Shown in pieces: positions 6,619 through 26,986 of a stretch of 64,000 bases of DNA (position 1 is the stretch's first letter; the number at the start of each line of letters is the position of its first letter). The position numbers and the translations under genes are program-made. The notes under the pieces are model-generated. The model was not told where the DNA came from, did not search any database, and saw only the letters and a program-made list of their open reading frames with translations. This DNA comes from a virus, in the IMG/VR virus record IMGVR_UViG_3300023184_000036; one strand, 5' to 3'.

Positions 6619-9600
6619 AATTGATAAGACCTGTACCTGTTGAATCGGTAGTGTATGTTACATCGCTGCCATTATAACCAAATGTAACACCAACATCACT
6701 ACTAAATGTCCTATCATCTTCTATACTATATAAACCACCAGAAGTCAATGTAAATTTAGCAAGTCCAGTGGCAACATTACTGCCTCTTGTAATAGTATAT
6801 TGGAACTCAAATCCAAAATTTTCACCAAATTCATTTAATCCAGTTACGAGAGCCGCAGTAGTATTATTTGCTAATGCCAATGTTCTACCACGTTGGTAAT
6901 TGATTGTTCCCATACGCAAGCCGTAAGAATATACCCATTCAACAGCTTGTTCAACTTCACTTACATATGGTATACCAGTGCTTGTGCTTGCCTGTGCTGC
7001 TGTTCTATCAAAACTATCACCGATACTTGCACAACCACTTATTGTAGTATCAAAATATATGATTCTATAAAATGGATTTGCAACACCAGTGCTTTTGTTA
7101 CCTACATCACGGTAATAATTACTTAAACTTAAGAAATTAGTGCTGTTTGTCATATAACAACCACTATTGTAAATTAAGTCCATTGTGCTGTTACTGATAG
7201 TAAAACCAATAGCACTTGTTCCAACAAAATACAAACCATGATAAAGGTTGCTAAATGTGCAACTATCTATAAGTCCATTGCTTGTATACTGACTACTCGG
7301 TAGATAAATTCCAACATGAAATCCATTAATTAAACAATCAGTAATATTAACATCACTTGCATATGCAAGGGCACGACCAAGTAGCTTAACACCAGCAGTA
7401 GTGCTGCCATTAATTGGATCTGTTAAAACAGTGACAGTGCTTGTGTTTGGACCTTGGAAACGAATATTGTTTAATGTAACACGTGTTGCGCTGTCAACTA
7501 CAATACCATCATTAAGACTTTGTAATGTCATATCACTTATTGTAATATCAGTTGGTAGACTTGCACCATTTAATCCAATAAGATTTTGAATTTGTTGTAG
7601 GTCATCTGCTGTATACATAACCCATGTTGTATATGGATAGATGTATGGATTTGCTGTTTGTGTGATTTGTGTATTATAAGTTCCTTCACCACGCAATCTT
7701 GCATAACTTGGAACATTTATACTACCACTAACAATATATTCACCTGCTGGAAAGTATAAAACTTTACGTGCTGCAAGACTTGTTGTTCTGCAATATAATT
7801 CATACATTGCACGATTAATGGCTTCTGTGTCATCTGTAACACCATCACCTCTGGCACCAAAATCTTTTACACTAACAAAGTCATCAAGTTTTTTCTGTAA
7901 AGAACGTTGTGTAATTGTTCCACCATAACTTAAACTTTGTGTTGTCCAAGTTTGTGCATCTAAACTTGTGCTTATATGACCATTATCACCAATAGCATAA
8001 TAAGTGCTACCAATATAACCCATACCACGATTGCTATATGTTACTGATTGTGTTTCTTTTCTAAAATAATTGTATTGACTTGTGCTATAATAAAAGAAAC
8101 CATATTGACCACCAATAACATTAGTTGTGTTATTGTCTGCAATATCATATAGATCTGGTGCAAGTGCGCTGGTTCCAAAATAGATACTTGTATAAGTCCA
8201 AGTTACTGCATCTTGTGATTTAAGATAAGTTAGACTTGTATCACCACTTACATAAAAATATGTGCCGATATAAGTAGAACCAGTTAAGTTAGCATAAGTT
8301 GTTGTTGTTTTTGTAAACCAACTAGTGCCATTTGTGCTAGTAGCAATAACACCATGATCACCTGTAACAATCCAATAATTTGTGGACGCACCGCCTGGTG
8401 GTGTAAATGTATAATATTGTACACTGTTTAAATCACTTAGTGTGACAGTTGCACCGCTTGGATCAGTTGCACTATTTGCAATAGCACTGCTCCATGTTGT
8501 GCCATCTGCACTGCTAACACCAATACCACCAGTTCCAACTGCAATTGCTTTATATGTTCCACCACCCAAATTAGCAACTGCAACGCTGCGAAGTTCTGCG
8601 CTTGTGCCGCTGCTACGAGAAGTCCAAGTTGTAGCATTTGGACTGGTTAGTATAGTTCCATTAGCACCTACTGCAATCCAAGTAGTTGTGCTTAATTTTG
8701 TTATACCAATTAAGTTTTGTGAAGTTCCACTTGTACGTGCAGTAAAAGTAGTGCCAGTTGTAGATGTTAAAATAACACCACTATCACCAACAACTACCCA
8801 AGTAGTACCATCAAAATAAACACTGTTTAAACTCGTAGATACACCACTGGTTCTTGCTGTCCACGTAGAACCTGTTCCACTAGTATAGATTCCACCACTG
8901 CCAGTTAGCACTGTAAATAAACCAGCACCATTATGGTAAATGTACTTAAAATTTTCAATAGCACTTGCTACTGTCGTGATCTTGCTTAATGTAGTGCCAC
9001 TAGCATTTTTATATACATCACCCCAACTTGTAAGAGACCATGCATTTGTGCCATCATTAGTAACACTTACCAAACCATCAACAAGGCTTCGAGTCCATGT
9101 ACTACCATCAGTGCTTACATAAACTTTATTACTTTCGCATGCTGCAACAAATGAGTTACCACTACCATTAGTAATATAACGTAAACCCAAAACATCATAG
9201 AAACCAACACTTGTTACAGTCCAAGTTATAGCATCTGGACTTGTTATAATTCTGCCATTTGTTCCACCAGCAACAAATTTACTATTACCATATGCAATAC
9301 TATAAAGAGCATCAGTTGTTCCACTGGTTTGACTACTCCAAGTTACGCCATTATTACTTGTAAAAACTTCACCAAGTTCAGTTACAAGAACAAACTTACT
9401 ACTTGCATAAACAATTGCATTGATGTTAGTGTATGAAACTGCACCACTTGGTTGCCATACTGTTCCATTTGAACTATACAACACTGTACCATTAGTTCCA
9501 ACTGCTACAAAATATCCACCACCATAAGCGATATCAAGTAAATTTTGTGTAGTTCCACTTATAGTGCTGCTCCAAGTAGAACCATCACTACTTGTAAGAA

Positions 9601-15282: not shown

Positions 15283-16305
15283 TTAGGGATTTTTACACTT
15301 TGCAACTTTTCCACAAACATTGTCGCATTGAATTAAACGACCAGTTTCATAACTATCTTTAGTCCATGAACTTTCTACACTACTAAACCATTGTATGCAA
15401 GTTTCTAACTCATTTTCATGCAAGCTATTATGTTTTATCAATGGTTTAATTTGACGATTTAAAAATCCATTATATCCTTGATCATAGGTTAATGGATTAA
15501 AAGCCAAATAACAACAAGGATAAACTAATCCATTTGCAGCAATATAAACTGAACTATTATCTTTTGTAAAACAAGAATGTATTAATCCTTGAACATATGG
15601 TCGATGACGATATGTTTTATTTGGGTCACTTTGAAATTTTATTATATCTTCAATATCAGTAAACCCTTTGTAATTTCCTAAAATACGAACTAACTTACCA
15701 CTGCGGTCAAAAACTGGACCAGTATTTCGTCCATGATCAACTATTTCAAATCTTGCAAATCCTAGTTTTTTAGAAAGTAATTGTGCCTCTTCAATTTGAT
15801 GTTTATTATGATCAAATCTTATCATTTTCCAAGTAGCAACTCCGCCAGCATCCATATAAGTTTTTGCATTTTGAAGTATTCTGTTAAAATTGGTATCTTG
15901 CCGATATATTTCATGTGTATCTTCTAAACCATCTAGGCAAAAATCTACAATTGTATCTGAAAATTTTCCAAGTTCATGCCAAAAATCTGCGTTTCTTGCA
16001 CTACCGTTTGTGCTTATTCTTATCCCCAATGGCGAATAACACGATTTAAAATAATCTAATATTTGTAGAGATTCTAAATTAGATGTAAAATCTCCAAAAT
16101 TTCCATTAAGTAATATTCCACGTTCAAGTTGTGAAATAAATTGTGGGGAAAATGAATGTTTAATTAAATTAAGTGTTAAATTAGTTTCTTCATATCCACT
16201 ATTGTATGGATAACCAAATAAGTTTCTTGGACAAAGTGGACATCTAGCATTACATAAACTACTAAATTCCATATGTAAATGTCTGATTTCTTTTAAACTG
16301 ATCAT
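15283..16305 (-). CDS. Radical SAM protein (paralog of 309..1157)
   Basis: CNARCPLC, GNFGD, DGLEDTHEIYRQ; C-terminal YPCC and CDNVC. Confidence 0.85.
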   Translation of the reverse strand: MISLKEIRHLHMEFSSLCNARCPLCPRNLFGYPYNSGYEETNLTLNLIKHSFSPQFISQLERGILLNGNFGDFTSNLESLQILDYFKSCYSPLGIRISTNGSARNADFWHELGKFSDTIVDFCLDGLEDTHEIYRQDTNFNRILQNAKTYMDAGGVATWKMIRFDHNKHQIEEAQLLSKKLGFARFEIVDHGRNTGPVFDRSGKLVRILGNYKGFTDIEDIIKFQSDPNKTYRHRPYVQGLIHSCFTKDNSSVYIAANGLVYPCCYLAFNPLTYDQGYNGFLNRQIKPLIKHNSLHENELETCIQWFSSVESSWTKDSYETGRLIQCDNVCGKVAKCKNP

Positions 16306-16332
16306 TTCTATATTTAAATAGTATACACAATC

Positions 16333-17616
16333 ATGAATGAAATCAAATCAAAATTAGAAAAACGTGGTAAATTTTTTTGTCCTGCAAAGTGGCAAGAATT
16401 ATATCTGTATTTGAATCATGGTAATACAAACAGTTGTTCTCATCCAATACCACACAAAATACCACAAGAAGAACTTAATGAAAGTTTGTTTGCTTTACAT
16501 AACACCAAACATAAAATGAAAGTTCAGCAACAAATGCTTAATAACGAAATCCCCGATGAGTGTCATATGTGTTGGCATTTAGAGAATAAAGGAATTATGA
16601 GTGATAGATTTGTAAGAGGCAGTCACTGGGAATCTTCTATAGACAATCTAAAAGTAGATAAAAATCATATTCCTAAATTTATAGAAGTTGTATTTGATAA
16701 TTTATGTAATTTAAGTTGCAGCTATTGTGATAGTGGTCAAAGTTCAAAATGGACAAACATTTTAGAAAAAACAGGTCCATGGGAAATAGAAACAGATGAT
16801 AGAAATTTATATAACAAAATTAACATAAAATCAGGGTTTGTAAATAAAACTTATATCGACGCTTGGAATAATTGGTGGCCGTTAATTAAAAATCAAGTTG
16901 AGTTTTTAAAAATAAGTGGCGGCGAGCCTTTAATCAGTCCCAATTTTTGGAATACCGTATACAAAGTTGATGAAAGCAATCTGAATTTAAATTTAAGTAT
17001 TAACAGTAACATGTGTTTTGATAAGAAATATATTCTTAAATTAATAGAAATTGCAAAAAATTATAAAACGATCAAAATTTCAGCAAGCATTGATGCAACT
17101 GGAAAAATAGCAGAATATACCAGAAATGGTTTAGATTATGATTTATTTTTAGAAAATATTAATTATTGGTGTGATAATAGTCCAGATAACTGTTATCTAA
17201 GTTTGCAAAGCACAGTTAATATTTTTAACATCTGGGGCATTACCGACAAGTTTGATTTGCATTTGAATTTAAAAGAAAAGTATGGAACTAAAATAAAAGA
17301 ATGTTATAGCACTATTGTTAGATTTCCAAAATTTCAAAATTTTTTATTATTACCATATAGTATCAGAAAATCTATACATGAAAAAATGTCTGCATGGTAT
17401 GAAAGTAAAATTGATAAATTTTCCGAAAAAGAAAATATTTTTATTAAAAAAACATTCCAAAATCTTCTATCGGAAAATGATGAGCATAATTTTGAAAAGA
17501 AAAAACTTTACAAGCAAGATTTAATTAAATTTGTAAAAAATTATGACAAATTTAATAAACATAAATTTGAAAATGTTTATCCAAAAGAATTTATTGATTG
17601 GTTGAATGAAGAATAA
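16333..17616 (+). CDS. Radical SAM protein with N-terminal Cys/His-rich auxiliary segment
   Basis: CNLSCSYC, SGGEP, SID; N-terminal CPAKW..CSH..CHMCW. Confidence 0.85.
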   Translation: MNEIKSKLEKRGKFFCPAKWQELYLYLNHGNTNSCSHPIPHKIPQEELNESLFALHNTKHKMKVQQQMLNNEIPDECHMCWHLENKGIMSDRFVRGSHWESSIDNLKVDKNHIPKFIEVVFDNLCNLSCSYCDSGQSSKWTNILEKTGPWEIETDDRNLYNKINIKSGFVNKTYIDAWNNWWPLIKNQVEFLKISGGEPLISPNFWNTVYKVDESNLNLNLSINSNMCFDKKYILKLIEIAKNYKTIKISASIDATGKIAEYTRNGLDYDLFLENINYWCDNSPDNCYLSLQSTVNIFNIWGITDKFDLHLNLKEKYGTKIKECYSTIVRFPKFQNFLLLPYSIRKSIHEKMSAWYESKIDKFSEKENIFIKKTFQNLLSENDEHNFEKKKLYKQDLIKFVKNYDKFNKHKFENVYPKEFIDWLNEE

Positions 17617-17685: not shown

Positions 17686-19386
17686 ATGAAACTACCAGAA
17701 AACGCACAGGCACAATGCGAACAATTATTAAAAGAATTTAGAAGAAAAATACCAGATGATGCGGCATATAGTGATCGCCTTGTTGAAGAAATAGAAATCA
17801 TACTGGGATTACGTTTTACAGAATACTTCTTACAGGTCCGTGAAATATTAGATATGACCACTGATTTACCACACATGACTCGTGGTAGTGCAGGCAGTAG
17901 TCTTGTATGTTGGGCATTAGGAATTACAGACGTTGATCCTATAAAATGGGATATACCACTTTCACGATTCTTAAATCCACACCGTGATGATTTACCAGAC
18001 ATAGACATAGACTATCCACATTGGGCACAAACTACAGTGATGGAACGTATATTCAAACGCTGGCCAGGTAAAAGTGCACGAATTAGTAACTATGTTACAT
18101 TCAAAGAAAAAAGTGCCAAGCGTGAAGCAGCACGACGACTTGGTGCAAAAGGTAAATTACCTCGCAACTTCAAATACGATGATCTTGACATTGACATAGG
18201 GGAAGCCATACGTATTGAAAAGAAGTTGCTTGGTAAGAAACGAGCCATCAGCAAACACTGCGGTGGCATACTTGTGTTCAAGCATAATCTACCAAAAAGT
18301 CTAATAAATGCCGATAATCAAATACTGTTAGACAAACATGAAGTAGAAGACCTTGAACACTTGAAGGTTGACATACTTGCTAATCGTGGTTTAAGTCAAC
18401 TATATGAAATAGAACCAAATATGAGTTTAGAAGACTATCCTGATTATGATGAAGCAACTATAAATCTACTTTGCAATGGTGATGTATTAGGTGTAACACA
18501 AGGTGAATCACCAGCAATGCGACGATTGTTCCGTGCAATACAACCAAAGTCACGCAGTGATTGTGTATTTGCTACTGCACTTATACGTCCTGTTGCTACC
18601 ACTGGTCGCCAAAAAGCAAGTTTCTTTCATGACTGGACTGAACAACGATTAGAAGAAAGTATTGTTTATGAAGATGATGCTATCAAAAAGATAAGCAAAC
18701 TTATTGGTTGTGATATCTATGAAGCAGATATGTATCGTCGTGCATTTGCCAAAAAGAATGAAGAAAAAGTTTATGAGTTTATGCACCGCATGGGAACACA
18801 TCCTAATAAAACAGAAATTATAGACGAACTTTATCAACTTGGAAACTTTGGATTATGCCGTGCACATGCTGTAAATCTTGGTAGATTGATTTGGGCGTTA
18901 GCATATCAGAAAGCGCATAACCCAAAACCATTTTGGGCAGCATATCTTAAACACTGTGAAGGCAGTTATCGTCGTTGGGTTTACAAGAATGAAGCCAAAC
19001 GTGCTGGTTGGGATTTACGTGATTTAGGTTACAATTACAGTTTACTAAACGACTCAATTTATGAATATCGCAAGTATGGATGGTGGGGAGATCAAGAGTT
19101 CTTATCAGGTTTTTATTGTTCTAATCAGTATCTGGACCGTTTTGAATTTGCTGGTCTTGTTGCTAATGGTCGTGTATTCAAAGGTGAAGGTGGAAAGTAT
19201 ATTACATTCTTGACACTTGGTGTTGGTAACGGAAAATATATTGACCTATTGGTAAAAGGTCCAGTTGCATATCATGATTATGATGTTGTATGCGGAGTAG
19301 GCAAAGTTAAAACAAGCAATGGCAGTCAATATATTGAATGTCAAAATGTGCGGACATTAAAATTGGAAAAATTTATTTCTGCTTAA
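17686..19386 (+). CDS. dnaE: DNA polymerase III alpha-like (family C) lacking the PHP domain
   Basis: RGSAGSSLV, GITDVDP, RFLNP.R..LPDIDID, KHCGG, KVDIL, LIRP, CRAHA motifs; OB-like C-terminus. Confidence 0.88.
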   Translation: MKLPENAQAQCEQLLKEFRRKIPDDAAYSDRLVEEIEIILGLRFTEYFLQVREILDMTTDLPHMTRGSAGSSLVCWALGITDVDPIKWDIPLSRFLNPHRDDLPDIDIDYPHWAQTTVMERIFKRWPGKSARISNYVTFKEKSAKREAARRLGAKGKLPRNFKYDDLDIDIGEAIRIEKKLLGKKRAISKHCGGILVFKHNLPKSLINADNQILLDKHEVEDLEHLKVDILANRGLSQLYEIEPNMSLEDYPDYDEATINLLCNGDVLGVTQGESPAMRRLFRAIQPKSRSDCVFATALIRPVATTGRQKASFFHDWTEQRLEESIVYEDDAIKKISKLIGCDIYEADMYRRAFAKKNEEKVYEFMHRMGTHPNKTEIIDELYQLGNFGLCRAHAVNLGRLIWALAYQKAHNPKPFWAAYLKHCEGSYRRWVYKNEAKRAGWDLRDLGYNYSLLNDSIYEYRKYGWWGDQEFLSGFYCSNQYLDRFEFAGLVANGRVFKGEGGKYITFLTLGVGNGKYIDLLVKGPVAYHDYDVVCGVGKVKTSNGSQYIECQNVRTLKLEKFISA

Positions 19387-20776
19387 GATTATTAAGCATT
19401 TGTCGTAGCGCACTGCTGTTTACATCAGCCTGTATTTTACCAGGTTGATCTTCTACCACTGCTTCTGTTGATGGCTTAACATTGCTACCACCTTTAATGC
19501 TTGCAAAGATACTACTGCTTTGTTTCTTAAATTGTTGATAATCTGGATCTTCTGCAAGGTCACGAATACGCAAACTATCAATATCAAATTCTAATTCAAT
19601 CTTTTGCCCAACACCACTACTACTACGTGTTTTCATAAGTTGTAGTTGATACTTGCCATGTTCACGCATACTACGACTTGTAAAGATACCAAATAGATTA
19701 TCTGCGGTATTGATCTTACTGATACCACCACTGATATGACTATGGTCAAATTCTACTTCTTCCACAGATGCACGGTTTAACTGTGATGCTGTGACTAATA
19801 GAATATCTAATTCTTTTGCAAAGTTACGAATTTCTTCACTGACATACTTGTCTTTAACAAACAGATCACTTGGGCTAACCTTTGCACTAACAGGCATAAG
19901 CAAGTCAAGATAATCAATCATAACAAAGTCAACATGACGACCAGTTCGTATTTGTAATTCTTTAATATAAGCACGAACATCGTTGATATTGCTTTGTGCT
20001 GGCATATACTTGATTTGCAAGCGACCACTTTTCTTGCCAAGCATCTTAACTTTAACTTCAATATCTTCAATGCTTTTAAAGATATCACGTGACGGTGTAT
20101 TGGTAAGCATACCATCAATACGCATGGCAGTAAGTTCTTCACTCAATTCAAGTGTAATGTATACACCATTAAGACCTGCCAATATCCAATTACAAGCAAT
20201 GTTCTGCATGAACAGTGATTTACCACTACCAGAACCGCCAGCAAAGATATTCAATTCACCACGATTAAATCCACCAAACAGCTTCTTGTCAAGTGTGGTC
20301 CATCCACTACTTGTTTGACCGTTATTATCTTTAATTTTATTCAATCGTGCAATAGGATCAAGAAAGTAGTCAGTGCCAAGGTCTTTGGTTAAACTAATCT
20401 GCACTGCATCTTTAATAATCTTTTCAACAGGATCAAAATCACCCTTTTCCAACATATCTGCGGCTTTTAGAATTGCACGTTCTAATTCTTTTTGTTTAGT
20501 AAAACCTTCAAATTCTTCCAAGAACCAACCAGTATGGTCATCAGTCATACCAGGTATGGGTTGGAAAGTATTACTGGTGGCAGCATTAATCTGTTCTACC
20601 AATGGCATAATAGTATGCTTGTCACAATGTTCTTTGATAAACTTTGCCGCACTCTGCAAACTACGGTCAAAGTTGTTTGGATTGAAAATGTTTTGGACAC
20701 GCACATAACTTTGTGGGTCACTTAACATCATTTCAATGAATAGTTTTTGAACTTGTGAGTCGTAGTTTTTAGACAT
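19373..20776 (-). CDS. Replicative DnaB-family helicase (T4 gp41-like)
   Basis: GGSGSGKS Walker A, TLELSE, IDYLDL, TASQLNR, KTR. Confidence 0.93.
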   Translation of the reverse strand: MSKNYDSQVQKLFIEMMLSDPQSYVRVQNIFNPNNFDRSLQSAAKFIKEHCDKHTIMPLVEQINAATSNTFQPIPGMTDDHTGWFLEEFEGFTKQKELERAILKAADMLEKGDFDPVEKIIKDAVQISLTKDLGTDYFLDPIARLNKIKDNNGQTSSGWTTLDKKLFGGFNRGELNIFAGGSGSGKSLFMQNIACNWILAGLNGVYITLELSEELTAMRIDGMLTNTPSRDIFKSIEDIEVKVKMLGKKSGRLQIKYMPAQSNINDVRAYIKELQIRTGRHVDFVMIDYLDLLMPVSAKVSPSDLFVKDKYVSEEIRNFAKELDILLVTASQLNRASVEEVEFDHSHISGGISKINTADNLFGIFTSRSMREHGKYQLQLMKTRSSSGVGQKIELEFDIDSLRIRDLAEDPDYQQFKKQSSSIFASIKGGSNVKPSTEAVVEDQPGKIQADVNSSALRQMLNNLKQK

Positions 20777-21374: not shown

Positions 21375-22133
21375 TTAAATACTTTGATTATAAGTAAAAT
21401 ATTTTACATTGATATCATAAAAACGTTTATATAAAATTTCTACTTTATTCTTATCTACTTGAATATCAAATTTTTCTAATATTTCTTGCAAATTTTTTAA
21501 AAATTTATCATAAGAAAAAAAATTTTCAAAGTAAAAAACTATATCAGTATCTTCAATATTAACACTTTCAGAAAGATTATAATAATACTCTGTTATTTTT
21601 TTACTATTTTTTTCTAAAATTAAATGTTTTCTTTTTTTATTTTTTTCTAGGTCACTAATTTTTTTGTAGCTATATATTGCATTTTCATTGACTGATTCTT
21701 TAATTTTATCTCCCATTATTTTACTAACAATATCTAATGACTCTTTTTTAAAAAGAATAAAAATTTTATTTGTATGGGGGAAAACTTCTCTTATTTCATT
21801 TATACCTACAAAAGTGGCAATTCTTTGAGGGGGTTGAAATATTTTTTCATTTTTAACTTTGACATCAATGTTTTTATTTAAAAAGCTATCTTTGTCTTCA
21901 CGGGTTTTTATTTCTATCCATGCATTAATATCATCGTCACCATGAAAATTATTCAAGACAAAAATTATATTTTTATGGGCAGCATTGTTTTGATCAAAAA
22001 TATCGAAAGAATCCTCAAAATATTTTGTAAATTTATCTGATAAAATTAATATATGATATAAAAAACTACCAAATGTTCCTGGTGTATAAAATATAAAAAA
22101 CATTTGTTTTTTTAATTCTTCTAAATCAATCAA
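21375..22133 (-). CDS. AT-rich hypothetical, N-terminal GxxGxFL loop
   Basis: YTPGTFGSFL; FYFENF C-terminal motif. Confidence 0.55.
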   Translation of the reverse strand: MIDLEELKKQMFFIFYTPGTFGSFLYHILILSDKFTKYFEDSFDIFDQNNAAHKNIIFVLNNFHGDDDINAWIEIKTREDKDSFLNKNIDVKVKNEKIFQPPQRIATFVGINEIREVFPHTNKIFILFKKESLDIVSKIMGDKIKESVNENAIYSYKKISDLEKNKKRKHLILEKNSKKITEYYYNLSESVNIEDTDIVFYFENFFSYDKFLKNLQEILEKFDIQVDKNKVEILYKRFYDINVKYFTYNQSI

Positions 22134-23131
22134 TCAAACCACCGTTTTGTTTGTAATTTAATTTTTAAACTACTATTTTCTACACTTTGTAAAATACTTT
22201 TCATAGTGAAGGTATGACCATACTTAGCAACACTGTCTGCAACATCTTTAATACCATCACCCCAATCTGGAAATGCTACTCCCCAACCATACTTTAGCGC
22301 AGCATTAACCATTGCGTGGCCAGCTTTGTCACGATCAGGAACAACAATGATATCACGATCAAGTGTTTCAATAACATCGGCTTGCGTGTCATTGATTTCA
22401 TTACTACAAATTGCAAGTGCACCAATAGCAACTGCATCAAGCAATCCTTCAACAACAATACAAAACTTTGCGTTTTTAAGTTGTTTATCATATCCCCATA
22501 TCATATTACTTGGATAGTTGGAAAAATATTTTATCTTCTTCTTACCATCTTCAAATAATCTACCACTGAAACCCATGGGTTTATTGTTCCAAGTAAATGG
22601 AACTAACACACGGTTGCGCAATGACGCATCATCTGTCCAATGAAACTCATGCAACTTATCACCAAAACCACGAGCATCAAGATAACGAATAGCGGTTTCC
22701 AAACTGTTATAATCTTCTTCATTGATATATCCATCATTTAACCAACTTGTAATAGGACGACCAGGACAAGGATCACGTGGTTCATAGGTAGGTAACTCAC
22801 GTGTTTCAACTACAACTGGTTCTGCGGTCTCTTGGCTGATAGCAAATAGCGCAAGACGACCTACAAGGTCTTCACCCATACCAAGCCAGTTCATCCAACG
22901 CCGCATTTTATAACTTAAACGACGACCTGGCTGCCAACTACAAGTATAGTGACAATTGAAACAATGATAATTGATACCGCCTTCTAGTGTTTGGTGAACA
23001 CCACCACGACCACGAGTATCGGACTCGTGTCCCAAATGCTGACAGCATGGCGCATTAAAGCTAATCCACCCACTTGGGGTAGATTTCTTCTTCCATGGCA
23101 AATGGTTCAGTATTTGGTTGGTAATTTCCAT
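22130..23131 (-). CDS. DNA primase (T4 gp61-like)
   Basis: N-terminal Zn ribbon (CC..CFNC), TOPRIM VEGLLDA and DRDKAG, KD. Confidence 0.9.
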   Translation of the reverse strand: MEITNQILNHLPWKKKSTPSGWISFNAPCCQHLGHESDTRGRGGVHQTLEGGINYHCFNCHYTCSWQPGRRLSYKMRRWMNWLGMGEDLVGRLALFAISQETAEPVVVETRELPTYEPRDPCPGRPITSWLNDGYINEEDYNSLETAIRYLDARGFGDKLHEFHWTDDASLRNRVLVPFTWNNKPMGFSGRLFEDGKKKIKYFSNYPSNMIWGYDKQLKNAKFCIVVEGLLDAVAIGALAICSNEINDTQADVIETLDRDIIVVPDRDKAGHAMVNAALKYGWGVAFPDWGDGIKDVADSVAKYGHTFTMKSILQSVENSSLKIKLQTKRWFD

Positions 23132-23137
23132 TTAAGT

Positions 23138-23166
23138 AATATAACAGATTTATGGCAATCTGTCAA
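23138..23166 (-). promoter_or_regulatory. Sigma70-type promoter for primase, probably leaderless
   Basis: TTGACA-N17-TATATT with TGn extension; -10 ends 6 nt before ATG. Confidence 0.7.
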
Positions 23167-23951
23167 GGACGATAATAAATGTAATTCATCTGACCGCTAA
23201 TTTGACTTACTTTAAATCTTACAGCACGATATTTGCCTTGGAAATTAAAATAATTACTACCACTGACATTTGCACAATTAGCATAACTTATAGTTGTAAA
23301 ACTGTTAGAATCAACCACACTCTTTGCATCCATACTTGCTTGTAACTGAATATTGCCAGTAAAAGCATTAGAATTATATTGCACAGTCTGATATACGGCA
23401 CTACCACGAACATAATTTGCGGTCAGGAAGCTACTACTGTATGCAACATTTACATAATTTGTATCACTGTTATTGCTGTATGTAAAGTTGTTAGCACTAT
23501 AGCTTGGTGTAAACTGTGGATATACTGAATCTTGTATTCTTGCTTGACCTTGTGCCTGATAGTTGTCATCGCTATAAACAATTTCTTGTTCACCTTCACC
23601 ATTTGTGGCAACAATACTATAATTATATAATCCTGCATTTATATTGTCAAGCAAACTGCCTTCAATAAGACAAGTTGCTACACCATCACGTGTATAAACA
23701 AGGTCAAGATTACGTGAAAACACTAATTCTTTTGTAGTGCTATCAATTAAATTAAATAAAACTGTGCTTTGTAAAAGGCTCACAGGTTTTTGATCATTAT
23801 TTTTAATAACGAACTTAAATCTATTATCTACACCTTTATAGATTTGTAATGGCTTGGCGTAAAACAACTGATTCTCCCTGTGTAATGCAAGGTCGCTGTT
23901 CTTTACAACAGTTATAATTTGTTGATATAAATAACCTGAAATTTGCTGCAA
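23163..23951 (-). CDS. Beta-rich probable virion structural protein
   Basis: Ig/jelly-roll-like pattern (IYKGVDN, GLYNYSI, FQGKYRAVRF); TAAATA upstream; TTG start. Confidence 0.6.
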   Translation of the reverse strand: MQQISGYLYQQIITVVKNSDLALHRENQLFYAKPLQIYKGVDNRFKFVIKNNDQKPVSLLQSTVLFNLIDSTTKELVFSRNLDLVYTRDGVATCLIEGSLLDNINAGLYNYSIVATNGEGEQEIVYSDDNYQAQGQARIQDSVYPQFTPSYSANNFTYSNNSDTNYVNVAYSSSFLTANYVRGSAVYQTVQYNSNAFTGNIQLQASMDAKSVVDSNSFTTISYANCANVSGSNYFNFQGKYRAVRFKVSQISGQMNYIYYRP

Positions 23952-23977
23952 CTAATGGACCCTTTTTAATATTTATT

Positions 23978-24352
23978 ATGAGTTTTTCACTGGAACAAAT
24001 GCTTGAACAATATCCGTTCTTAAGTTATATAAAATACCCCACTGCGGATTTTATTGGAATTATTCAAAATTTTGATGGAGATATTGTTTCAATGTATGCC
24101 TTTAACAAATTAAAAACCGAAGATGATAAACGTGGATTTCTTGAAGCAGCAGAAATATGGTGGTGGGAAAGTAATCGGTTAATACCGATCAATATATTCT
24201 TAAAACATGGTTGGGACAAATATCGTTACAGCACAGTAACACTAACTACAAAAGATATAAGAGAACAATGTGGACATATTGTAAGCATTGCTAAACTTGC
24301 AGAACGCAGAACAAAACGTAGAGTTGTACAGTTAGTTAAACGACTAGGTTAA
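23978..24352 (+). CDS. Hypothetical protein
   Basis: 124-aa ORF on the opposite strand filling the gap; WWWESNRLIPINIFL. Confidence 0.7.
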   Translation: MSFSLEQMLEQYPFLSYIKYPTADFIGIIQNFDGDIVSMYAFNKLKTEDDKRGFLEAAEIWWWESNRLIPINIFLKHGWDKYRYSTVTLTTKDIREQCGHIVSIAKLAERRTKRRVVQLVKRLG

Positions 24353-24892
24353 TAAGTTCATATGAACCATTACTAATTGTGCATAGCCATAGGCATGTGC
24401 TTTCTTAAAATAATAGCCTTCATTTGGTTTTACCCAAATCTCATCAGCTATTTCTCGCCATCGTTTTCCGATAAGATATCGTTTTGATGGACGAATGATT
24501 GCCAATACCATAGCCAACTGATCCATTGTAGTAGGAAGATGTTGTTGTAAGACATCAAAATGATTTGATAGATGAATAAGTTTGGCAACGAAATCTTTCT
24601 CCTTTAATAATTCCCACTGTGGTTCACGCTTACAGAGTTCGTCAAGATGCTCGTTACTGCGAACTGAATTATAAACGTGAACATTCAGTAGGTCAAGTTT
24701 CATATAACCTAATTCTTCTGCCGTATCATAATCAACGTTACTTAATCCTGTAACAGGATTGAACGGAATAGGATTGACATAGACTCCAGTGTTGTGCTTG
24801 ACAACAGCACCGTCACGGCGTATAGACGCAGGAACATGCTTGATAAGTTTCAAGATATCCTCACGGTTTCCAAAGTCTATATCAATATCCAC
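24344..24892 (-). CDS. Miniature/split DnaE (family C polymerase) palm-fingers fragment
   Basis: MDIDIDF, HNTGVY, GYMKLDLL, LAIIRP, FKKAHAYGY match DnaE motifs in order within 182 aa. Confidence 0.8.
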   Translation of the reverse strand: MDIDIDFGNREDILKLIKHVPASIRRDGAVVKHNTGVYVNPIPFNPVTGLSNVDYDTAEELGYMKLDLLNVHVYNSVRSNEHLDELCKREPQWELLKEKDFVAKLIHLSNHFDVLQQHLPTTMDQLAMVLAIIRPSKRYLIGKRWREIADEIWVKPNEGYYFKKAHAYGYAQLVMVHMNLLT

Positions 24893-25627
24893 TTAACAAC
24901 CAGCCTTTTCTAATATCTGCCTTGCAAGTTCTGCTTCTGCGGCATGTATTTTTAACTTGCGTTCCCAAAATGGTGGATCAATCCAAGGTAGTGCAAGTGT
25001 AACTTGTTCTTCATTTAATTGTCCAAGTTTTTCTATACCATTGTCACAGCAATAAATTACCCAAGGACTAATCCGACCATGAACAATGTGATTTAAGAAA
25101 CGACTTGTGCTTATCTTTTTAAAGTAATCATTAAACGCTATAATGTCATCTTTAGTTTCTTCTGCCCAACGTTGCATAGTTTCAACACTACGCTCTAATG
25201 CTTCATCATATTTTTCAGTTCTAACATATTCCCACAGATATGATTCATAAATTTTATCACGTGTCCAACTATCAAGTTTGTATTTGCTTGTTAGCACATA
25301 ATCTATAAATTTATTAACATTAATTGCATCAATCGCATTACAGTGACGACCAAATTTTACAAATCCTTGATATAGTGAACTACTGCAAAAGTCTTCATAT
25401 GTTTTAAGTTTAGCACTGCCTTGGGTTAATTCATAAAACCTTATCCAAGCAATATAACCAATACGCACACCTTTTTCATTCTTTTGATTTTCACGGCGTT
25501 TTGGTTCGCATTGATGAACTACAAGACTGTTTTCACGAGTGAAAGCAAGTCCGCAGTATTTGCAAACAAATTCTCCAGACTTAACATCTTTAGCCGCTTC
25601 AATTGCAATTTTATGTAGTTCTTTCAT
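24893..25627 (-). CDS. Hypothetical protein with N-terminal zinc finger
   Basis: CKYC..F......HQC; GRISPW motif. Confidence 0.75.
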   Translation of the reverse strand: MKELHKIAIEAAKDVKSGEFVCKYCGLAFTRENSLVVHQCEPKRRENQKNEKGVRIGYIAWIRFYELTQGSAKLKTYEDFCSSSLYQGFVKFGRHCNAIDAINVNKFIDYVLTSKYKLDSWTRDKIYESYLWEYVRTEKYDEALERSVETMQRWAEETKDDIIAFNDYFKKISTSRFLNHIVHGRISPWVIYCCDNGIEKLGQLNEEQVTLALPWIDPPFWERKLKIHAAEAELARQILEKAGC

Positions 25628-26150
25628 TTAATAATTCTTTTGCTTCATTTGTAATATAATACTTAAATGTGCTATTGTCAAATCCTAATAACACATCTTT
25701 ATGTAGCGGTAATTCATAAGCATTGTATGGTTCGATATGAATAATTTCATTATAATACTGTGGAAAATTACCAAAATAAACTTTTGGTTTGACAATATCA
25801 GTAACAGATTCATTAATAAATCTATGGTGTAAATGTCCATATTCACCAAGGTGATTGTGTGTTAATATAAGATCATGTTGACTGCAATGATAATGCAAAA
25901 ATTTTTCAGCATCTTTACCATCAAAACCTAATTCATTATTCTTTACCAACTCCCAGTTATCAGTAAATCCACCAAATTGTGTTTCAACTCCATATTTGTC
26001 CCAGAAATTTTTCATTTCATTAGCACGTTCATCAAAGAAATTGTATGTAAGATAAACAATTTTCCAATCATAATGTTGATATTTTCTTATAAAACCCCAA
26101 CCAAAAATTACACAATCATCAGGATGAGCAACTATACATATGGCTTTCAT
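25611..26150 (-). CDS. PIG-L/LmbE-family deacetylase
   Basis: VAHPDD and THN..GEYGHLHH metal-binding motifs. Confidence 0.8.
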   Translation of the reverse strand: MKAICIVAHPDDCVIFGWGFIRKYQHYDWKIVYLTYNFFDERANEMKNFWDKYGVETQFGGFTDNWELVKNNELGFDGKDAEKFLHYHCSQHDLILTHNHLGEYGHLHHRFINESVTDIVKPKVYFGNFPQYYNEIIHIEPYNAYELPLHKDVLLGFDNSTFKYYITNEAKELLNERTT

Positions 26151-26986
26151 ATGCGGTCCTTTACAAATTCATCCCATGCAAAGCGTTGGTCAGCATCAAG
26201 TAGTTTATATGCACGTGGATGTATGCTTGCAGTGAGTGCCTTATCGTCTCCTTGTAATTTAACAAACCAATTATAAAAATTATCTACTTCCCAATCTGCA
26301 AGATTATAAACACTAAATTGCTGCTTGCCACTATATAAATCATCAAATAAGTTATTTTTGCTTATCCATGCACTATAACATAAAAACTCTGTGATACCGT
26401 AAGTATCAGGATTTACTTTACTTGGAAATTGGCAATTGCTTTCAAACCATTCTACAAAGTTTGGTTCATTCATGACCATATCACGCATGGCATGAGTATA
26501 AGCAAGAAAAGGAACACCAGCAGGACTGATCCAGTTAAAATTTGTAATATTATATTTTTGCTTTAGAAATTGTAAACCAGACTGCCAATGTGGACTGTTG
26601 CATGTCCAACTTTCACAATGTGCACGATTGTATTGGTCAAATATTTCTTCAATATCAAATGGACGAATAAACCATGTCTTGGCATCAAGTATCATGCACC
26701 AGTTACTTTCAGCATGTGCTGTACCAAGTATCTTGCATATTTGCTGTGTATACCAACCTGACAGATGTGATGATGGATAATAACCAAACTCATTGCGGTG
26801 AAATATGCGAACTTTATAACCAAGATCGCCATACCAACTTACGTCAATATCGCCATGAGTTAGCGTGTCATCATTTAATATAACATATATGTTTTGTATT
26901 TCATGATCAAAGTAATAAGCCATACTGTATGCTTGAAGTTCAAGCAAATGCAGTTCATTACGATAAACAACAGTTAGCAAGTCCAT
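26147..26986 (-). CDS. GT-A-like putative glycosyltransferase (DUF6492-like)
   Basis: GWYTQQICK, ILDAK, TEFLCY motifs. Confidence 0.55.
   Translation of the reverse strand: MDLLTVVYRNELHLLELQAYSMAYYFDHEIQNIYVILNDDTLTHGDIDVSWYGDLGYKVRIFHRNEFGYYPSSHLSGWYTQQICKILGTAHAESNWCMILDAKTWFIRPFDIEEIFDQYNRAHCESWTCNSPHWQSGLQFLKQKYNITNFNWISPAGVPFLAYTHAMRDMVMNEPNFVEWFESNCQFPSKVNPDTYGITEFLCYSAWISKNNLFDDLYSGKQQFSVYNLADWEVDNFYNWFVKLQGDDKALTASIHPRAYKLLDADQRFAWDEFVKDRI

Follow-up and report, generated by a model that had tools for sequence, protein, structure and literature searches.

The probable C-terminal half of a split minimal family-C DNA polymerase in an uncultured freshwater jumbo phage

Introduction

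The stretch of viral DNA considered here, 64,000 nucleotides (nt) of the IMG/VR record IMGVR_UViG_3300023184_000036 (hereafter the window), encodes on its minus strand a protein of 182 amino acids (aa) whose motifs are those of the catalytic core of bacterial DnaE, crowded into about half of the usual length. We propose that this protein is probably the C-terminal unit (C-unit) of a two-chain minimal family-C DNA polymerase of T4-like jumbo phages, the other chain being an N-terminal unit (N-unit) encoded far away in the genome. Enzymes of this kind have been predicted before. Jumbo phages of group 2.2, which includes Atu_ph07, possess a phage-specific minimal PolIII alpha beside their family-B polymerase (Iyer, Anantharaman, Krishnan, Burroughs and Aravind, 2021, Viruses 13:63, PMC7824862). 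By computational prediction, the published enzyme consists of an N-terminal unit binding the nucleoside triphosphate and a C-terminal unit binding Mg2+ and the template, the two being encoded at distant loci (PMC7824862). The same study states that group 2.2 phages contain none of the other Pol III domains, suggests that the split enzyme cooperates with the family-B enzyme in the synthesis of one strand or in repair, and proposes that it can serve as a model of the ancestral bacterial replicase (PMC7824862). An earlier reading of the locus, made from the letters alone (the sequence-only reading), had recognised a miniature DnaE; it mentioned neither this published split enzyme nor a complete DnaE of 566 aa, with an RGS motif of its own, that is encoded 5 kb away in the same window. 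Here we describe the locus and the protein, weigh the two-chain polymerase against other explanations, and compare it with known systems.

The locus and the 182-aa open reading frame

The features of the locus are collected in Table 1. The open reading frame (ORF) of the C-unit is intact, and its GTG codon (24890-24892) abuts, in frame, the TAA (24893-24895) of the 244-aa zinc-finger gene, an adjacency that the sequence-only reading had noticed and with which the coordinates agree. Residues 1-7 read M-DIDID-F, and the motifs follow one another as in DnaE: DIDID (2-6), HNTGV (33-37), KLDLL (65-69), IRPSKR (133-138) and FKKAHAYGY (162-170). Judged from the sequence, this set of motifs in this order is far beyond chance. 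The GRGS loop that binds the triphosphate in DnaE is absent from the 182-aa chain, as had been said of it earlier, and from all aligned homologs; it sits on the separate N-unit.

Table 1. Coordinates of the C-unit gene, its motifs and the genes around it, with the number of related IMG/VR loci (of 80) in which a neighbour is kept
Feature	Position in the window	Strand	Basis or remark	Related loci
Complete compact DnaE, 566 aa, without PHP	17686..19386	(+)	PF07733 E 7e-41, PF17657	
DnaB-like replicative helicase	19373..20776	(-)	conserved block	40/80
Toprim/DnaG-type primase	22130..23131	(-)	conserved block	49/80
Virion-type protein				66/80
124-aa gene, phrog_11637	23978..24352	(+)	convergent with the C-unit gene, 3' ends overlap by 9 nt	73/80
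Probable C-terminal (Mg2+- and template-binding) unit of split minimal PolIII alpha	24344..24892	(-)	182 aa, GTG start	
K163-K-A-H166-A-Y-G-Y170, counterpart of the DnaE NKSHSAAY O-helix, with steric-gate His (E. coli H760)	24383..24406	(-)	conservation; aligned to E. coli 739-767; steric gate PMC8485763	
I133-R-P-S-K-R138, counterpart of the DnaE ALFRPGP finger motif	24479..24496	(-)	conservation; aligned to E. coli 597-641	
K65-L-D67, E. coli K553/D555 (third catalytic Asp)	24692..24700	(-)	conservation	
H33-N-T-G36 loop, counterpart of DnaE KHAGG	24785..24796	(-)	conservation; model secondary structure	
D2-I-D4-I-D6 metal-binding strand, E. coli DnaE D401/D403(/D405)	24875..24889	(-)	conservation; fusion P0165 alignment; E. 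coli residues PMC8485763	
244-aa zinc-finger protein, phrog_11058	24893..25627	(-)	stop abuts the C-unit start	75/80

That a polymerase fragment should start directly at its catalytic aspartates raises the question of its true beginning. Reading upstream from DxDxD in 79 related loci, one meets an in-frame stop after 1-47 codons, and in 78 of these 79 a start codon is found 1-9 codons ahead of the motif; the gene therefore truly begins at the motif. At 50% identity the C-unit family has 491 representatives, at 90% it falls into 3405 clusters, and the best 150 of the 491 representatives are mostly 175-235 aa long and start 1-11 residues before the motif, those that are shorter being partial. 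The abutment of TAA and GTG could also mean that the zinc-finger gene and the C-unit gene yield one product by readthrough of the stop codon, the more so as the two genes are likewise joined, as TAA-ATG, in 16 related loci. In distant relatives, however, the distance of the in-frame stops varies and 0.4-2.4 kb can separate the two genes, and the best 150 of the 491 representatives include no fusion of zinc finger and C-unit. Given this varying spacing, the abutment is ordinary tight packing, perhaps with translational coupling, and a readthrough product is very improbable.

Deposited annotations treat the gene unevenly. The RefSeq coding sequence of Atu_ph07 (NC_042013) begins at locus position 9067, past the DxDxD, where the protein match runs from 9001 (to 9561); the GenBank record of GAP32 (JN882285) labels the C-unit a putative membrane protein, and in many deposited records either half is labelled hypothetical.

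Likeness to DnaE in sequence and structure

Among phage protein families, phrog_11778 (annotated as DNA polymerase, 197 positions) matches the 182-aa protein from end to end with an E value of 1e-60, and phrog_405, the family of full-length DnaE, gives a weak match over residues 146-180. Sequence searches of the PDB gave no significant match for the protein or for its profile (best 2HNH, E 3.2). When the C-unit profile is laid on the E. coli enzyme (2HNH), three co-linear fragments, individually not significant, pair residues 2-19 with 402-419, 94-137 with 597-641 and 148-174 with 739-767, and thereby put H166 onto H760.

An AlphaFold2 model of the 182-aa protein, built with 24 homologs, has a mean pLDDT (predicted local distance difference test) of 86; the best 14 Foldseek matches in the PDB are all DnaE, followed by PolC. 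VIA-align places the model next to 15 C-family polymerases with Z scores of 8.6-5.6, the next chains, which are unrelated, reaching Z 2.5, and lets model residues 1-182 span 401-776 of E. coli PolIII alpha, 462-833 of the Taq enzyme, 420-803 of M. tuberculosis DnaE1 and 972-1291 of PolC. The motif positions, the phrog_11778 match and both structural searches thus bear out what the sequence-only reading had seen, namely DnaE motifs in order within 182 aa.

It had also held that thumb and fingers are mostly deleted, and the span over E. coli 401-776 agrees with this. The 182 residues replace about 375 of the E. coli enzyme; in place of the thumb the model has a short beta-hairpin (strands 20-26 and 29-38), after which comes the H33-N-T-G36 loop, and between the FRPGP and NKSH motifs the fingers are shorter by about 100 residues, the segment with E. 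coli R709/R710 among them. The length of the protein and its span leave no room for the PHP domain, the beta-clamp-binding motif, the OB domain or the tau-binding C-terminus, and none of these is in it.

Conservation and selection

Conservation was counted over 99 full-length divergent representatives (clusters cut at 50% identity). All 99 have K65 and D67; D2, D4 and P135 are kept in 97 each; H33, G36 and R134 in 96 each; D6 in 94, H166 in 92 and K163 in 90. The carboxylate triad of E. coli (D401, D403 and D555; roles from PMC8485763) is therefore present as D2, D4 and D67. Over 101 pairs, the median ratio of nonsynonymous to synonymous substitution (dN/dS, Nei-Gojobori) of the C-unit is 0.13; the pairs that include the window give 0.08-0.15. 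The earlier suggestion to look among homologs for loss of the three aspartates or for decay thus led to the opposite picture, one of retention, and the catalytic residues of both units are under strong purifying selection.

The complementary unit and its natural fusion

The sequence-only reading had supposed, as the first of its alternatives, that a minimal polymerase is split here and that the other half, with the GRGS motif, is encoded beyond the window. Such a partner exists in the relatives. The nearest relative genome is that of a 338-kb phage with terminal repeats (G001), and its C-unit is 93% identical to that of the window. About 227 kb from this C-unit, an ORF of 171 aa (L002:1501-2016, minus strand) contains the predicted motif as GVGRGSSVASFVLYLIG, carries GVGRGSS and ends in EFMR-stop; its stop falls where DnaE runs on, a few residues later, into PDxDxD. 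This N-unit passes PF07733 at positions 42-94 (34 bits), and tblastn with it found no such ORF in the 64-kb window. In 24 aligned N-units the GVGRGSSVASFVLY block and the final R are invariant. The N-unit family is represented by at least 7963 clusters at 90% identity, those listed being 160-187 aa long. Some 430 nt from the N-unit gene of the same genome lies a 129-aa ORF (L002 682-1071, minus strand), which by eye may be a co-chaperonin of the GroES or gp31 type.

The two units occur together. Among cultured phages, the C-unit is found in 96 records, all of them jumbo phages, so that the similar fragments once suspected in other large myoviruses are indeed there; the N-unit is found in 101, a few of these matches being ordinary dnaE genes, and the tallies by host genus are nearly equal. 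The two genes are 30-224 kb apart in PA5oct, Atu_ph07, Phosso, PBECO4, GAP32, Sharanji and others; in PA5oct (MK797984) the C-unit is gp220, at 143,938-144,540, and the N-unit ORF is found near 187.6-188.0 kb. In IMG/VR, all four C-unit genomes that are at least 80% complete (G001-G004) carry the N-unit as well, and two roughly half-complete fragments with the C-unit are without it.

A natural fusion connects the two directly. In the metagenomic protein P0165 (375 aa), about 11 linker residues join an N-unit to the C-unit that follows it; this is the only fused form among the best 150 of the 491 representatives. It aligns unbroken, from the RGS loop through DxDxD, to residues 42-137 of the 566-aa DnaE, including the catalytic DIDIDY (E 4e-7), and matches PF07733 positions 12-121 in one stretch over the junction (60 bits). 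By these alignments, the two units complement each other within a single PolIII alpha catalytic core, and the complementary 171-aa unit, the co-occurrence and the fusion together uphold the supposition of a split enzyme. We also considered a protein truncated at its N-terminus that starts after the thumb and keeps only the third Asp, as suggested by a BLASTP alignment that lays DIDID on DLDID at residue 166 of the 566-aa DnaE. This was ruled out by the alignment of P0165, by the profile fragments on 2HNH and by the structural ranges.

The same evidence speaks to the possibility that the 182-aa protein acts alone, as a repurposed nucleotidyltransferase or primer-extending enzyme. It keeps the three carboxylates, the lysine of K-x-D and the steric-gate His, and its predicted fold is a confident single chain, all of which would suit such an activity; a Pol-beta-like fold, however, needs the G-S loop and the helix preceding it to hold the triphosphate, and both are missing from the chain. 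As the N-unit is present in every sufficiently complete genome checked and nature has joined the two units in one polypeptide, we consider solo action improbable.

Other polymerases of the clade

The phage of the window is a T4-like jumbo myovirus with a family-B polymerase (PolB); the PolB, of 887 aa, is seen in the nearest genome, G001, and the window has no gene for it. The window does contain the complete compact DnaE of 566 aa, whose gene converges on that of the helicase and which carries RGS, DIDIDY, KHCGG, KVD, IRP and RAHA motifs of its own. This gene is found in 6 of the 80 related loci, mostly in the nearest relatives, and among deposited phage records the sole close relative of its product belongs to an uncultured 484-kb phage (LR756508, 37% identity), with no close match in the PA5oct or Rak2-type records. 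Beside it, at 15283-17616, are two radical-SAM genes, one of 340 aa on the minus strand with a SPASM-like tail and one of 427 aa on the plus strand.

One may ask whether the 182-aa protein and the 566-aa DnaE are themselves the two halves of one enzyme, their genes being 5 kb apart around those of helicase and primase and the proteins sharing a weak similarity (E 2e-4). The 566-aa protein has every motif, which makes the shared parts duplicated and not complementary, and the actual complement is the 171-aa GRGS unit; this pairing is therefore hardly credible. The 566-aa DnaE is an additional polymerase specific to this clade and does not partner the 182-aa protein.

The presence of two other polymerases in the clade, and the lack of a thumb and of clamp-binding parts in the 182-aa protein, could also point to a catalytically silent accessory, decoy or regulator, docking on the 566-aa DnaE, on PolB or on the host Pol III, with motifs that are merely structural. 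Yet the best-kept residues are those for metal, dNTP (deoxynucleoside triphosphate) and sugar gate, which an inert scaffold is not expected to retain over 99 representatives, and the C-unit persists in PA5oct and Rak2-type phages, where the 566-aa DnaE is not found. A silent role seems unlikely to us, if slightly less so than solo action.

Gene neighbourhood

The order zinc-finger protein, C-unit, convergent 124-aa gene, virion-type protein, primase and DnaB-like helicase is kept across 80 IMG/VR loci (Table 1), where neighbours that are missed belong mostly to loci that end early, and the same order is found in PA5oct and Atu_ph07. The genes of the window also include those of a tail sheath, a tail tube and a large terminase. 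A megablast search with 10 kb of the window gave no match in cultured phages. At least five studies from 2017-2019 have the stretch 22100-25700, almost in full, in their freshwater and lake metagenomes, and the phage is therefore a recurrent lake phage.

In close and middle-distance relatives the 124-aa gene exceeds its neighbours in conservation, with 99% amino acid identity where the C-unit has 93% and the zinc-finger protein 91%. About 50 nt of it (24157-24205) recur in many other lake-metagenome contigs, and a search of the ESM Atlas with its product gave no usable match. Directly upstream of the zinc-finger gene, at 25611-26986 on the minus strand, are genes for a PIG-L-type deacetylase (179 aa) and a DUF6492 protein (279 aa); the deacetylase gene is a variable insert, present in 23 of the 80 related loci.

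The zinc-finger protein itself has one classical C2H2-type finger, in which C22, C25, H38 and C40 are invariant and whose profile matches the fingers of PRDM9 and Gfi-1 (E 2e-6 to 1e-5); the rest is a confident all-alpha body (model pLDDT 90). Foldseek found no match for its model in the PDB; BFVD gave only its own ortholog, and the ESM Atlas only unnamed viral clusters. In a wide VIA search the best chain was the C-domain of T4 gp59 with Z 3.3, tied with unrelated chains, and the Pfam models of the gp59 N and C domains had no match in the complete genomes G001, G003 and G004, so that a divergent gp59-like helicase loader is a weak lead. The sequence-only reading had suggested co-folding this protein with the C-unit, and for the zinc-finger protein as a partner we found no support: a complex prediction of N-unit, C-unit and zinc-finger protein, with the latter as the scored partner, gave a score of 0.00 and a mark of 0.32, values that are uninformative on binding either way.

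A model for the two-chain polymerase

Taken together, we give a probability of about 0.85 to the 182-aa protein being the C-terminal unit of a two-chain minimal family-C polymerase. In the model that follows from this, the C-unit would supply the beta-strand with D2 and D4, the HxxG loop, the K-x-D strand with D67, the IRP finger motif and the O-helix-like KKAHAxxY with the steric-gate H166. The N-unit, of about 171 aa and encoded tens to hundreds of kb away, would supply the helical start of the palm and the GRGS loop, which would hold the incoming dNTP by its triphosphate above the D2/D4/D67 metal site; it ends about 7 residues short of the point at which the C-unit starts. Docked non-covalently, the two chains may form a single Pol-beta-like nucleotidyltransferase palm with reduced fingers, in which H166 would exclude ribonucleotides. 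Such an enzyme would be without a thumb, a PHP or proofreading domain, a clamp-binding motif and an OB domain; from the lack of thumb, clamp motif and proofreading we would expect a distributive, weakly processive, DNA-templated and dNTP-selective polymerase. It would work beside the family-B replicase of the phage, and its most likely role, which is the least certain step of the model, would be to synthesise short patches at the fork, for instance in extending primers or filling gaps. The reasons for this role are the position of the C-unit gene in the conserved primase-helicase block and the published suggestion (PMC7824862). Homology, boundaries, conservation, co-occurrence and the fusion are what the data show; heterodimer formation, polymerase activity and role are what we infer, and for the assembly of the two units into an active polymerase the fusion P0165 and the conservation of residues are indirect support.

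Several points weigh against the model. Pfam gave no match for the 182-aa protein, with no PHP or HHH_6 and no PF07733 even at E values up to 1. The thumb and the segment with R709/R710 are absent, so that activity on DNA is not guaranteed. The N-unit is known from relatives of this phage and none lies within the 64-kb window. The clade already has PolB and a complete 566-aa DnaE, next to which a third polymerase looks redundant. A literature search also found no experimental work on the split enzyme after 2021, and no biochemical or structural data for any member.

A more elaborate picture can be drawn, in which the split enzyme would be a dedicated polymerase for primer extension or gap filling in the primase-helicase module, handing off to PolB as Pol alpha or B. 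subtilis DnaE do, within a replisome of three polymerases (PolB, the 566-aa DnaE and the split PolIII) and with the zinc-finger neighbour as a divergent gp59-like loader or adaptor. We regard this picture as speculative and rather doubtful as a whole. With its 566-aa DnaE, the clade would have three polymerase systems.

Comparison with known systems

The protein of the window shares with the C-unit of Iyer et al. its form, a separate small protein (about 180-200 aa) beginning at DxDxD, an N-unit encoded far away (in the relatives), and a T4-like jumbo myovirus with PolB as its bearer. Homologs with 39-49% identity are found in PA5oct and its relatives, Atu_ph07, Phosso, the group of 121Q, PBECO4 and GAP32, XaC1 and a Vibrio phage. 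Nothing essential is different from the published enzyme; the copy described here comes from an uncultured freshwater phage, has a GTG start, and belongs to a clade with an extra 566-aa DnaE. This complete DnaE does not fit the statement that such phages contain none of the other Pol III domains (PMC7824862).

The likeness to bacterial DnaE and PolC (2HNH, 2HPI, 5LEW and 3F2B) lies in the order and identity of the active-site motifs, from D401/D403 via K553/D555 to H760, and in how the second half of the palm and the finger core are folded. Unlike in these enzymes, the GRGS part of the palm is on another polypeptide, and there is no PHP domain, beta-clamp motif, OB domain or tau-binding domain. 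A family-C polymerase made from two genes is also familiar from cyanobacteria, whose DnaE is encoded by two genes at distant loci, the halves being joined covalently by a split intein. The phage enzyme is similar in having two distant genes and different in its split point and in its assembly, which would be non-covalent: none of the C-unit homologs reaches upstream past DxDxD, and the invariant R is the last residue of the N-unit, which leaves no room for intein halves.

For the function, a possible analogy is offered by B. subtilis DnaE, a primer-extending polymerase that hands off to PolC (PMC3664799). By analogy only, the split enzyme may be an additional C-family polymerase that is less processive and is linked to primase and helicase; the B. 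subtilis enzyme is a full-length single chain, unlike the two chains of the phage.

Significance

The split enzyme as such has already been published (Iyer et al., 2021, PMC7824862). That study is extended here by a natural fusion of the two units, by the exact position of the split, by figures on selection and on how large both families are, and by the coexistence, in one clade, of the split enzyme with a complete compact DnaE. The exact boundaries, the single-chain fusion as a guide for design, the conserved residues, and the cultured phages that have both halves (PA5oct, 121Q-like phages and Atu_ph07) make a test at the bench straightforward. The family is large in metagenomes, with thousands of 90% clusters for each half, and, if the model is true, no family-C DNA polymerase smaller than this pair of chains, with about 350 residues together, would be known.

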